Of a stretch of DNA of 64,000 bases, positions 29,916-49,559 are shown piece by piece. Both the position numbers and the translations under genes were made by a program. The stretch's first letter is position 1, and every line of letters starts with the position of its first letter. Below the pieces are notes generated by a model that was given only the letters and a program-made list of their open reading frames with translations, did no database searches and was not told where the DNA came from. Where the stretch lies: the NCBI GenBank assembly GCA_020725385.1, contig DYFC01000017.1, positions 48,178 to 112,177 of the forward strand, given 5' to 3'. Origin of the DNA: Nitrospira japonica. Lineage in GTDB: Bacteria > Nitrospirota > Thermodesulfovibrionia > Thermodesulfovibrionales > SM23-35.

Positions 29916-31220
29916 TTATTTCTTTTTAATGTATATTCTTATTGGTGTGCCTTTAAAGGAGAAATGATTTCTTAATATCTTTTCAATATGTCTTATATGG
30001 AAGTCTTTAAAAGCTTCTGGGTGATTTGTAAATAGTATAAATACAGGAGGAGCGGTTTTAATTTGTGTAATATAATATATTTTTACAGTTCTGCCTTTAT
30101 AGCTTGGAAGGTTCGAGGTAGATAATATTTCATTAAGAACCCTGTTTAGTTCAGCAGTCTGGATTCTTTTATTACGTTCTTTAATAATTTCATCTATTAT
30201 CGGAAAAATTTTTGTAACCCTTTTTTTTTCAAGAGCTGATATAGTGATGAAAGGCGCATACTGCATAAACCACATTTTTCCGAGTAGTTCTTTACCAAGA
30301 ATTTTATAATCATTTTCAGGGTTTTTCATTAAATCCCATTTATTAAGAATAAAAATAGCACCTTTACCATATTCTTCGACAATGCCTGCAATTTTTTGAT
30401 CCTGTTCTGTTATTCCTTCAGATGAATCAATAACTATTAATGCTACATCACACCTTTCAATACTTTTTAAAGCTCTTACCAATGAATACTTTTCTACGGA
30501 ATAACTGAATTTATCTTTTTTTCTTATGCCTGCTGTATCAATAAGAAGATATTTTTTACCGTAGTAGGAACATATACTGTCAATCGAATCTCTTGTTGTG
30601 CCGGGTATAGGGCTCACAATCATTCTTTTTTTACTCAGGAGTGTATTAATCAGAGTTGACTTTCCTGAATTTGGTTTGCCGACAACAGCGATTTTCGGGA
30701 AAATTGCAGATTCTTCTTTATATTCAGGAAGTAAGGACACAAGTTTTTCCATAAAATCATCATAACCATAGCCTGTTGCTGCGGATAATGGTATCAGTTC
30801 TTCAGAACCTATTGCATAGAAATCGTATAATCTATCTTCCCGTGAATATGCATCTATTTTATTTACAGCCCAGATTACTTTTTTCCCGGATGCTCTAATT
30901 TTTTTTGATAGTTCAATATCAGGAGGAGTTAATCCTGCTTTACCATCAAGCAAATGGATGATGACATCTCCTTCTTCAATAGCAAAAAGAGCCTGTTCTG
31001 TAACCTGTTTTATGATTTCATCATCTGCTTCTGGATAAAAACCTCCGGTATCAACAACAATAAAGTGTTTTCCTTCCCATTCTGCATCAAGATAATTACG
31101 GTCTCTTGTAACCCCGGGTATGTTTTCTATAATAGCTGTACGTGTACCTGTAATTCTGTTAAAAAGTGTTGATTTGCCTACATTTGGTCTTCCAACGATT
31201 ACTACTATAGGTTTAGGCAT
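29916..31220 (-). CDS. der: Ribosome biogenesis GTPase Der
   Basis: Two G domains (GRPNVGKSTLFN, GKPNSGKST), DTGG/DTAG, C-terminal GTPIRI. Confidence 0.97.
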   Translation of the reverse strand: MPKPIVVIVGRPNVGKSTLFNRITGTRTAIIENIPGVTRDRNYLDAEWEGKHFIVVDTGGFYPEADDEIIKQVTEQALFAIEEGDVIIHLLDGKAGLTPPDIELSKKIRASGKKVIWAVNKIDAYSREDRLYDFYAIGSEELIPLSAATGYGYDDFMEKLVSLLPEYKEESAIFPKIAVVGKPNSGKSTLINTLLSKKRMIVSPIPGTTRDSIDSICSYYGKKYLLIDTAGIRKKDKFSYSVEKYSLVRALKSIERCDVALIVIDSSEGITEQDQKIAGIVEEYGKGAIFILNKWDLMKNPENDYKILGKELLGKMWFMQYAPFITISALEKKRVTKIFPIIDEIIKERNKRIQTAELNRVLNEILSTSNLPSYKGRTVKIYYITQIKTAPPVFILFTNHPEAFKDFHIRHIEKILRNHFSFKGTPIRIYIKKK

Positions 31221-31726
31221 ATATATTTTTTAAACTCCTCCACCATTTGTATCCATAATTCTGCTATTTCTTTTAATTTATCATCAAACTCCCTGTAATT
31301 GATAGCAGGCTCCATTACATCAAATAAAGAATCACAAAAATACCAGTTGCAACCTGAAGGTCTAAAAACTCTATTTAGAGAACAGCCATTTTTATTTAAG
31401 AAATGGCATGGTTCTGAATCGTTTTTACTAAAATCAACTTCAGGTATTTTTGCCTCTATGGCATGAAGGTAGATAAGATCTTCGAGATTGAAACGGCCAT
31501 GCTTACTGATACAACATACATTTTTACAATCGGGACAAACATTATCAGTAGCACTTTGAATAAAATAATCTATATCTTGTATGCCCTTTTTTATTTTTAC
31601 CGAAAGTTTTTTTATATATGCTATCTCATCATTCTGTTTGTTAAATAATTGTTCCATAAAGATAAGTAGCGACTTATAATCATTAATTTCTCTTAAATTG
31701 TAATTATCTAATATTTTTATATTCAT
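31205..31726 (-). CDS. Cys-rich hypothetical protein (CxxCxxxCC; YkgJ-like Zn/Fe-S chelating)
   Basis: CPDCKNVCC, CHFL..NGC.L...RPSGCNWYFC. Confidence 0.6.
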   Translation of the reverse strand: MNIKILDNYNLREINDYKSLLIFMEQLFNKQNDEIAYIKKLSVKIKKGIQDIDYFIQSATDNVCPDCKNVCCISKHGRFNLEDLIYLHAIEAKIPEVDFSKNDSEPCHFLNKNGCSLNRVFRPSGCNWYFCDSLFDVMEPAINYREFDDKLKEIAELWIQMVEEFKKYICLNL

Positions 31727-31752
31727 AATTCATGTGATATTTTGGTCTGAAT

Positions 31753-31780
31753 TAAAGATTTTTTTTATAATTGACGATAT
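31753..31780 (+). promoter_or_regulatory. Sigma28 (FliA)-type promoter upstream of the 6S-like RNA
   Basis: TAAAG-15 nt-GACGATAT; same layout as the element upstream of the MCP gene. Confidence 0.55.
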
Positions 31781-31789
31781 TAATATTAA

Positions 31790-31945
31790 GCTATCCCGGG
31801 TTTTGAGAGCAGAGGGAATAAATATAGTGTGTAATCCCGGAGTGCATGATGTGGTGTGCATGCTCTTCTAAATACAGAGAAGCCTAAAGCATCAGCCAGG
31901 GTTAAAATGTTATAAGAGCCTCTTTAGCAGATCAAAATCCGGGAC
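31790..31945 (+). ncRNA. ssrS: 6S RNA or 6S-like RNA
   Basis: 13-bp closing stem TCCCGGGTTTTGA/TCAAAATCCGGGA, AGAGG/CCTCT, A-rich central bubble, TAATCC-GG/CC-GGGTTA, TGATGT/GCATCA. Apical GGTGTGCATGC...GAAGCCTAAAGCA resembles 6S RNAs from memory; no covariance search was run. Confidence 0.75.
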
Positions 31946-31999
31946 AAGATTTAACTTAATATATATATCAAGCTATCATCTCTTCACCTTCTACTAATC

Positions 32000-32027
32000 A
32001 AAAGGGTTCAGGTTTTTGAACCCTTTT
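32000..32027. terminator. Bidirectional intrinsic terminator
   Basis: AAAAGGGTTCA-ggtttt-TGAACCCTTTT between the convergent 6S-like RNA and DegT gene. Confidence 0.85.
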
Positions 32028-32034
32028 AAGATTT

Positions 32035-33168
32035 TTAATTTATTGCAAATATTTTTTTTAATACATTTACAATATGTAATACTTCCGATTTTTTAAGTAA
32101 TGGATACAAAGGTAAAGATATGGTTCTCTGACCAATTTCCTCGGCAACAGGAAAATCCCCTTCTTTAAATCCATAAGTTTTTCTGTAATATTTTAACAAA
32201 TGGATAGGTCTATAATTTACAGCAACACCTATATTATTTTTCTGAAGTGACCATACAATCTGGTCCCTTCTTCTTGCAGGTACTAAAATTGTAAAAAGAT
32301 GTCTTGCATGTTTAAGCCCGGGTAACGTCTTTAATAGGTTAATCTCTTTTATTGTTTTCAAAAAAGTCTCATAATATTCCCAAAGTTGATTACGTTTTTC
32401 CCATAATTTATCTATCCGTCTCAATTGACCAAGTAAAAGAGATGCTTGAATATTATCCATGTTGTATTTCCATCCAAGAACCGGCATATCCCAGTGACGG
32501 TATTTCCCTGTATATCTATCTGCAGCAGATTTATCAATACCATGTAAACGTAACATTCTTAGGATCTCTGCAAGTTTTATATTATTTGTGCTTATAGCTC
32601 CTCCTTCACCTGAAGTAATATTTTTCGTAGCATAGAAACTGAAACAAGCAGCATCGGAGATTTGCCCTGGTTTTAATCCTGCGCGTGATGCCTCGATTGA
32701 ATGTGCGGCATCTTCTACTATTTTTAACTTATATTTGGAAGCTATTTTGTAAATTTTTTTCATATCACACATTTGCCCGTACAGATGTACAGGCAAGATT
32801 GCTTTTGTTTTTTCAGTAATAGCAGTCTCAAGAAGTTCTGCATTCATGTTGCCGGTGTCTTCTTCTACATCCACAAATACAGGTTTTGCACCTGTGTGCA
32901 AAATTGAATTGGCTGTTGCACAAAAACTCATTGGAGTTGTTATAACTTCGTCTCCATTTCCTATCCCGAGGGCCAGTAAACTAAGATGAAGAGCGGCTGT
33001 ACAGCTTGTAACGCCAACAGTTTGTTTTACACCCAGATACTTAGAGAAGGCTTCCTCAAAAAGGGCGACTTCAGTGCCGGTAGTAAGAAATATTGACCTG
33101 AGAACATGATTCAGCCTAAACAAATCATCATTATTAATGTTATGACGAAAAAATTCTATCTTTTTCAT
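32035..33168 (-). CDS. DegT/DnrJ/EryC1/StrS aminotransferase (ArnB-like)
   Basis: SCTAALHL, PVHLYGQ, EDAAH, FSFYATKNITSGEGG (PLP Lys), SLPLYP. Confidence 0.93.
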   Translation of the reverse strand: MKKIEFFRHNINNDDLFRLNHVLRSIFLTTGTEVALFEEAFSKYLGVKQTVGVTSCTAALHLSLLALGIGNGDEVITTPMSFCATANSILHTGAKPVFVDVEEDTGNMNAELLETAITEKTKAILPVHLYGQMCDMKKIYKIASKYKLKIVEDAAHSIEASRAGLKPGQISDAACFSFYATKNITSGEGGAISTNNIKLAEILRMLRLHGIDKSAADRYTGKYRHWDMPVLGWKYNMDNIQASLLLGQLRRIDKLWEKRNQLWEYYETFLKTIKEINLLKTLPGLKHARHLFTILVPARRRDQIVWSLQKNNIGVAVNYRPIHLLKYYRKTYGFKEGDFPVAEEIGQRTISLPLYPLLKKSEVLHIVNVLKKIFAIN

Positions 33169-38161: not shown

Positions 38162-38189
38162 TAAAGAAATAATTTCAAATGGACGATAA
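38162..38189 (+). promoter_or_regulatory. Sigma28-type promoter of the MCP gene
   Basis: TAAAG-15 nt-GACGATAA; MCP genes are typical FliA targets. Confidence 0.65.
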
Positions 38190-49532: not shown

Positions 49533-49559
49533 TAAAGAAATATTACAGAATTCCGATAA
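49533..49559 (+). promoter_or_regulatory. Sigma28 promoter of flgM
   Basis: TAAA-15 nt-TCCGATAA. Confidence 0.8.

Follow-up and report, generated by a model that had tools for sequence, protein, structure and literature searches.

A short intergenic region of a 2.46-Mb hot-spring Nitrospirota genome (G000) carries what its conservation in sequence and fold marks as a real, conserved, structured RNA, best classed with the 6S family as a divergent variant and not as a standard member. The RNA lies within the 64-kb stretch of DNA analyzed here (the window), stands behind a promoter box of the sigma28 (FliA) type, and co-occurs with flagellar genes in its genus. In the usual view, a genome has a single 6S RNA, or at times two, which serves as a housekeeping-sigma regulator linked to growth phase. 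The full explanation proposed here, that of a third 6S paralog driven by FliA and acting in a 6S-like manner, has about an even chance of holding as a whole, and its components differ in strength.

Organization of the Locus

Two minus-strand genes are separated by 308 nt, and this gap holds the promoter box, the rod, the tail, and the terminator on the plus strand (Table 1). The terminator, which the original prediction had placed behind the RNA, is kept in the congener G005, where substitutions in both arms of the hairpin turn an A-U pair into G-C. Being palindromic, with A- and T-runs on its two sides, it probably serves the convergent DegT-family gene as a terminator too. The organisms that host the compact RNA are uncultured. 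One metatranscriptome of the same study has zero cover over 31200–32400 and is uninformative either way.

Table 1. Coordinates of the compact RNA locus and of other features discussed in the text. Positions are those of the window unless preceded by a label beginning with C or L.
Feature	Position	Strand	Basis or remark
TAAAG, −35-like element of sigma28 (FliA)-type promoter	31753–31757	+	Identical in G005, G003, and two metagenome contigs
GACGATAT, −10-like element of sigma28-type promoter	31773–31780	+	15 nt after TAAAG
Predicted transcription start	31787–31790	+	Placed by the usual sigma28 −10-to-+1 distance
Predicted 6S-family RNA body, 154 nt	31793–31946	+	Match to covariance model R1, and fold
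Closing stem, 5′ strand	31794–31806	+	Pairs with 31932–31944; 13 bp
Closing stem, 3′ strand	31932–31944	+	Fold and alignment of compact copies
Enlarged A/U-rich central loop, 5′ side	31811–31835	+	Fold
Short AGAGG helix inside the 5′ loop side	31811–31815	+	Pairs with 31919–31923
Apical (internal-stem) domain, 6S consensus ...GAUGUGGUGUGCAUGC-hairpin-GAAGCCUAAAGCAUC...	31836–31901	+	Identity to sister-genus RNAs
Central loop, 3′ side	31902–31931	+	Without the CACCCAC element of canonical 6S
Tail from RNA body to terminator, 53 nt	31947–31999	+	Contains ATCATCTCTTCACCTTCTAC, common to G005
Intrinsic terminator hairpin	32000–32027	+	1 found versus 0.3 expected
173-aa Cys-rich ORF, divergent neighbor, without Pfam match	31205–31726	−	
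der/engA	29916–31220	−	Follows the 173-aa ORF
DegT-family aminotransferase gene	32035–33168	−	Convergent to the RNA
6S-like RNAs of rrn leaders, plus strand	L096 1501–1655; L099 1501–1655; L101 1501–1660; L105 1501–1662	+	
6S-like RNAs of rrn leaders, minus strand	L116 1427–1583; L121 150–302; L124 1177–1332	−	
RpoD-like sigma factors of G000	C31:69914–70516; C58:989–1591; C15:39789–40409; C21:11530–12135		

The divergent neighbor is a 173-aa ORF that overlaps the start of der/engA in the window. Homologues of its product, with 36–80% identity, are encoded at 24 loci of Nitrospirota/Thermodesulfovibrionia metagenome-assembled genomes (L038–L061). The RNA is absent from 23 of these 24 loci, the sole carrier being the locus of the G005 lineage, so its position here is not ancient.

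Part of the 3′ tail, ATCATCTCTTCACCTTCTAC (31975–31996), is identical in G005, and its complement resembles a Shine-Dalgarno (SD) sequence followed by ATG. The segment might be an anti-SD-like seed or might merely reflect low divergence; a shared 20-mer is weak evidence because G000 and G005 are 86% identical here. The tail that bears it is absent from the copies of the G003 type (G003 and two metagenome contigs). The tail also holds the SD-like AGAAGGTG...ATG on the minus strand; the small ORF that it opens, read by eye, extends for just 3 codons in G000 and ~23 in G005 and was dismissed as a gene.

Membership in the 6S Family

Across 57 genomes of the bacterial family, the Rfam model of 6S RNA (RF00013) finds matches in 56, with one to six per genome (six in G043). 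Each genome has one strong main copy, scoring 75–102 bits, along with weaker paralogs at 25–57 bits. The weaker paralogs were sorted by eye and given labels of our own: multi-copy Type 2 and ~150-nt Type 3. Type 3 RNAs, for example those of G024 (L005), G008 (L006), and G045 (L092), score 41–51 bits with RF00013, whose gathering cut-off is 46.4 bits. The ~150-nt Type 3 lineage is widespread in the order Thermodesulfovibrionales.

The compact RNA itself escapes RF00013, which gives no match at the gathering score in the 64-kb window and none at E ≤ 10 either in 31600–32150 or in the whole genome; the ortholog locus of G005 has none at E ≤ 1. No other Rfam family reaches its gathering score in the window either, and none matches 31600–32150 credibly, the best matches being at chance level (E 1.6–8). 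The original prediction had listed the lack of an RF00013 match beforehand as refuting, a bar that proves too strict because the model is borderline for the closest relatives of the RNA (41–51 bits against the cut-off of 46.4). The miss is likely due to the loss of the GGGAG/CACCCAC helix that adjoins the bubble in canonical 6S RNAs.

Homology is carried by these relatives. In a DNA search over 41 related genomes, the whole element is recovered with 86% identity in G005. The apical domain, described beforehand as 6S-like, is 75% identical over 31836–31901 to RNAs of two sister genera, G024 and G008, and these score 46.3 and 51.4 bits with RF00013, that is, about the cut-off. A covariance model, R1, was built from six Type 3 RNAs of sister genera (alignment A2), the candidate being left out; one of the six sources is RF00013-positive at 51.4 bits, and the others score 41.5–46.3 bits. 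R1 matches the candidate over its full length (model positions 1–152 of 152) at 79.5 bits with an E value of 2.6e-17, and the G005 ortholog at 76.6 bits. Both outscore every Type 2 RNA (41–64 bits) and every main 6S RNA (43–57 bits) in a comparison of R1 over 25 sources; overall, R1 recognizes main 6S RNAs at 36–57 bits. End to end, the candidate aligns with Type 3 RNAs at 74% mean column identity, with 62 invariant columns in an eight-sequence alignment (A1). On this transitive evidence, the RNA is very probably a 6S-family homolog by descent, as had been suggested for it.

Its architecture is that of 6S RNA (SsrS) in several respects: a rod with a closing stem, a large central loop or bubble, and an internal stem with a terminal hairpin, the last carrying the apical consensus GGUG.GCA.GC-hairpin-GAAGCCUAAA. 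In contrast to 6S RNA, it has no RF00013 match, and the conserved GGG...CCCAC helix (RF00013 consensus ~59–61 and 128–134; the GGGAG/CACCCAC helix) is absent. These two features are why it is filed as a divergent variant. Neither rny, zapA, nor ygfA adjoins it, a context that is typical of 6S genes and not strictly defining.

Secondary Structure

The original prediction described a ~155-nt rod with a closing stem and an A-rich bubble, and the fold bears this description out: the 154 nt from 31793 to 31946 fold at −48.1 kcal/mol (z = −3.47; as good in 1 of 200 shuffles), with a 13-bp closing stem and an A/U-rich loop. Among ten aligned RNAs (three compact and seven Type 3), 94.2% of cells pair, versus 32–48% when the partners are slid by 1–3 columns. 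Both-side changes occur in 15 of 45 pairs, and the covariation score is reached by none of 500 shuffles of the same ten RNAs. Relative to Type 3, the closing stem has double changes at three positions (U-A to C-G twice and G-C to U-A once). Invariant G-U pairs, for instance at columns 67/101 (GU in 10/10), fix the plus strand as the one on which the structure is maintained.

Conservation is uneven along the rod. The closing stem is fully paired in all five compact copies, and helices 5–7 are paired at 90–100%. Helices 2–4 of the Type 3 fold, which surround the bubble, hold in just 38–57% of cells in the compact clade (53% for helix 4), and the columns of the GGGAG/CACCCAC helix (A1 columns 52–54/129–131) are broken in both the candidate and G005. 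The compact clade thus has a wider A/U-rich open region, within which a short invariant GAGG/CCUC pairing may remain. Since helices 2–4 are so poorly held, the geometry that mimics a promoter for RNA polymerase (RNAP) may be altered or lost. For the G003 copy, the minimum free energy fold of the single sequence differs in the interior, and its structural reading rests on the alignment over that fold.

6S Copies and Their Distribution

RF00013 finds two loci elsewhere in G000, one of them beside rny, in answer to the earlier call for a copy-number check. The main copy (C10:29896–30081, minus strand; 186 nt, 75.9 bits) lies directly upstream of rny and ~18 kb before the window, which agrees with the claim that the compact RNA lies outside the usual 6S locus. 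The other (C2:10824–10999, plus strand) scores 50.6 bits. R1 finds exactly three loci in G000, namely the candidate, the C2 copy, and the main copy. The RNA had been proposed as a second, shortened paralog; it is a third locus, and it is shorter than the main copy (154 versus 186 nt), while its nearest relatives are already ~151–155 nt long.

Five distinct copies of the compact RNA were found, in three species of the genus and on two metagenome contigs. In a tree of 18 RNAs, from which a truncated Type 2 match was left out, the three genome copies of the compact RNA form a clade with support of 100/98. The tree resolves little beyond this clade; a promoter-boxed RNA of G095 may be its sister, and the G008 RNA falls elsewhere.

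The context of the G003 copy differs from that of G000 and G005 and comprises ABC transporter and HSP20 genes. No terminator is visible 3′ of the RNA in the G003-like copies. In L102, L135, and L137, a strong SD sequence and a small ORF lie ~50 nt downstream of the RNA on the same strand; in L135 and L137, this ORF encodes a small hydrophobic product (MFLFLSGFFAG...). Given the missing terminator and the SD and ORF downstream, the RNA of the G003 lineage could be part of an mRNA leader or co-transcribed with the ORF.

Other members of the family have arrangements of their own. In G001 and G004, Type 2 RNAs occur in near-identical triplicate, and their flanks are conserved, with a TTGAAA-N17-TAAACT promoter upstream and GGAGCCATATAAGGG downstream; this arrangement suggests a recent duplication or a mobile unit. 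Seven 6S-like RNAs (R1 52–80 bits), from seven genomes in three families (f1, f5, and f9), are located in the rrn leader, with the 16S rRNA gene starting no more than 160 nt downstream. The five of family f1 were not reported by RF00013 in the 57-genome run. A terminator-like hairpin precedes several of these rrn-leader RNAs.

The Sigma28-Type Promoter Box

The FliA consensus is TAAA-N15-GCCGATAA, and the usual distance from a sigma28 −10 element to +1 is 6–8 nt. The box upstream of the RNA, TAAAG-N15-GACGATAT (31753–31780), matches this consensus. The 64-kb window has two matches to the pattern TAAAG-N14/15-GMCGATAW, at 31753 and at 38162–38189 before a gene for a methyl-accepting chemotaxis protein (MCP), against 0.02 expected from 100 shuffles, which upholds the claimed likeness of the two elements. 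In its strict N15 form, the pattern has two sites in the whole 2.46-Mb genome, at the RNA and at the same MCP gene.

The box is present in all five distinct compact copies, that is, in every one found, with spacers that vary; its conservation in relatives had been posed as a check. In G005 it reads TAAAG-N14-GACGATAT, its spacer differing from that of G000 by three substitutions and a 1-nt deletion, and in G003 it reads TAAAG-N15-GTCGATAA with an unrelated spacer. Two metagenome contigs related to G003 (L135 and L137) also have the box with GTCGATAA and different spacers. The distance from box to RNA body is 12 nt in G000, G005, and G008 and 14 nt in G003. A rival sigma70-like element, TTGGTC-N18-TATAAT, had been pointed out over the same stretch; no site directly upstream of the RNA passes a sigma70 scan, this one included, and its TATAAT is not kept in the G005 ortholog, where it has become TACTAAT. 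In G003, a possible TTTACA-N17-GAAAAT overlaps the box, with TTTACA changed to TTTTAG in L135 and L137.

Such boxes are enriched before the 6S-family RNAs collected here. Within 160 nt upstream, a box occurs at 5 of 82 distinct 6S-family RNAs versus ~0.18 expected at the rate of the G000 genome. The five are the RNAs of G000, G005, G003, and G008 and one copy of G095, all belonging to Type 3 or the compact clade. The box of G008, before a Type 3 RNA, is similar (GCCGAAAA). G095 is a 4.7-Mb, FliA-positive genome of family f6 with three Type 3-like RNAs, one of which (L128 1501–1654, minus strand) has a perfect TAAAG-N14-GCCGATAA box 40 nt upstream; the other two have none. In genera g20 and g38, Type 3 RNAs stand behind sigma70 promoters that resemble TTGACA-N17-TAACAT, even where FliA is present, so sigma28 control is no general property of the Type 3 lineage. 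For the compact RNA, the conserved box makes FliA-dependent transcription likely.

Relation to the Flagellar Regulon

G000 encodes FliA on C60, at 30800–31474 (239.7 bits versus a cut-off of 189.6), and the box of the RNA resembles those of the late flagellar and chemotaxis genes of this genome, in line with its original description as FliA-type. The likeness to the flgM promoter noted earlier also stands: TAAAG-N14-TCCGATAA at 49533–49559 precedes a gene confirmed as FlgM by Pfam. Boxes of this type also stand before motA, cheW, the gene that immediately follows fliA, and two MCP genes; another, TAAAG-N14-GCCGATAA, precedes an N-terminal flagellin fragment located where a contig ends.

Three of the six genomes of the genus have the RNA, and these are exactly those with FlhA (G000, G005, and G003). 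The other three, G001 (100% complete), G002 (81%), and G004 (92%), yielded no copy of the RNA and no FliA, FlhA, or FlgI. This co-occurrence of 3/3 versus 0/3 is statistically weak because the three species with flagella may belong to a single clade. G003 (91% complete, 460 contigs) has FlhA and FlgI, but no FliA was found there. In G008 (95% complete), no FliA, FlhA, or FlgI was found despite the box.

G000 also encodes four long RpoD-like sigma factors (frames of 437–515 aa) besides FliA. The protein encoded on C21 (L134 89–1510, minus strand) spans regions 1.1 to 4, and its gene has TAAAC-N15-GACGATAA 18 nt before the ATG. Judging by this box, the gene may be a FliA-driven RpoD paralog, with a leader that would be very short.

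Comparison with Known Regulatory RNAs

Mycobacterial Ms1 is a 6S-like rod that is missed by standard 6S models and associates with RNAP. The compact RNA resembles Ms1 as a 6S-like rod unrecognized by those models. One source mentions Ms1 together with 6S among the RNAs that associate with RNAP (PMC11077062).

The nearest relatives, the Type 3 RNAs, are collinear with the compact RNA over its full length, share its closing and apical stems, and belong to the same length class. Unlike it, they keep the GGGAG/CACCCAC helix, and most have promoters of the TTGACA-N17-TAACAT type. The main 6S copy differs in length, at 186 nt against 154 nt. Most bacteria have one 6S gene and some Firmicutes two, according to the available portions of the literature (PMC8876501; PMC8414754). 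Unlike the two-paralog systems, such as 6S-1/6S-2 of B. subtilis, the RNA described here is a third copy, and its promoter is of the sigma28 type instead of the sigma70 or sigmaS type.

Two precedents bear on these departures. B. subtilis 6S-1 RNAs cut down to the bubble with two short arms still go through the 6S cycle in vitro (PMC8876501), and a compact 6S form can therefore be functional. Likewise, an ECF-type promoter has been proposed for ssrS in Cupriavidus in the accessible part of another report (PMC13492112), so an alternative-sigma input to 6S has precedent. As a non-coding RNA of the late flagellar regulon, the compact RNA is comparable to the sigma28-dependent sRNAs of E. coli (MotR and FliX) and C. 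jejuni. In the available portions of their descriptions, those RNAs differ in acting by base pairing, several are derived from UTRs, and none is described as 6S-like (PMC10578931, PMC11187230). The accessible parts of the literature on 6S with sigma28 or FliA and on 6S in Nitrospirae describe neither a FliA-driven 6S RNA nor a 6S expansion in Nitrospirota; the survey of Wehner et al. (2014) falls outside this coverage.

Proposed Role and Alternative Explanations

The proposed explanation is that the RNA is a third, strongly diverged 6S-family member descended from the ~150-nt Type 3 lineage. It keeps the closing stem typical of 6S and an apical stem that bears the 6S consensus, and it has lost the GGGAG/CACCCAC helix, which leaves a larger open A/U-rich loop. 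It would form a separate transcription unit, running from the FliA-type promoter to the terminator hairpin at 32000–32027. Because a FliA-type promoter would drive it, the RNA should accumulate upon FlgM export, as the late flagellar genes switch on. Its action would most likely be 6S-like, in that an open-promoter mimic would occupy an RNAP holoenzyme and thereby shift sigma competition during late flagellar assembly. By analogy with 6S RNA, a function in RNAP binding is slightly favored; the idea of RNAP sequestration or of a decoy for an alternative holoenzyme, already raised in the original prediction, is pure inference.

The loss of the bubble-flanking helix, with helices 2–4 only 38–57% paired, and the lack of an RF00013 match would also suit a FliA-regulon sRNA that derives from a 6S gene, no longer binds RNAP, and acts by base pairing or protein binding, for instance via the enlarged loop or the CU-rich 3′ tail. 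This alternative is unlikely. In its favor, regulation by base pairing is what the available portions of the literature describe for the sigma28-dependent sRNAs known from E. coli and C. jejuni (PMC10578931, PMC11187230), and the tail run ATCATCTCTTCACCTTCTAC is common to G000 and G005. It is opposed by the distribution of conservation, which is strongest at the 6S-specific apical sequence and the closing stem and leaves no obvious single-stranded seed, and by the missing tail of the G003-like copies. The same two losses, of helix and of RF00013 match, together with a patchy occurrence in three of the six genomes of the genus, would be expected of a decaying, non-functional 6S duplicate. Such decay is very improbable, since the copies of G000 and G003 have diverged strongly and yet keep their closing and apical stems 90–100% paired despite both-side substitutions, the clade of the three genome copies is supported at 100/98, and the promoter is maintained throughout, as is the terminator in G000 and G005.

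Another possibility concerns the promoter, namely that a functional 6S paralog is transcribed by a housekeeping-type sigma and that the sigma28-like box is incidental. Most 6S RNAs, the Type 3 RNAs of g20 and g38 included, have sigma70-type promoters, G003 has the possible TTTACA-N17-GAAAAT overlapping its box, and G008 has a box where no FliA was detected. What makes this possibility quite unlikely is that no sigma70-like site passes the scan directly upstream, that the sigma70 hexamers are unconserved while the sigma28 half-sites are invariant or near-invariant in all five copies, and that five boxes are seen among the 82 RNAs where ~0.18 would be expected by chance. Lastly, the functional element could lie on the minus strand and serve the 173-aa gene/der operon, either as its promoter region or as a structured 5′ leader, given that 31727–32034 also folds well on that strand (z = −4.48) and that the divergent gene starts just 27 nt from the box. 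This reading has next to no probability and was rejected because the 6S homology runs on the plus strand and the invariant G-U pairs would become A-C mismatches on the minus strand; moreover, the element is absent at 23 of 24 loci of 173-aa homologues, and in G003 the RNA lies in an unrelated context.

Implications

The case shows that genuine members of the family escape RF00013, so that counts of 6S copies in Thermodesulfovibrionales are too low. A broader and doubtful extension is that the 6S fold has radiated there into promoter-specific modules, each reporting one transcription programme to RNAP: the main copy of the ssrS-rny locus, the sigma70-driven multi-copy paralogs, the copies upstream of 16S rRNA genes, and the sigma28-driven compact form. 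As part of this same doubtful extension, the widened bubble could be tuned to another holoenzyme, either that of one of the four RpoD-like sigmas or, as a feedback decoy, E-sigma28. If the proposed explanation is true, sigma competition would receive a new input from a 6S-derived RNA wired into the late flagellar programme of FliA, and completion of the hook-basal body would also alter the amount of free RNA polymerase.
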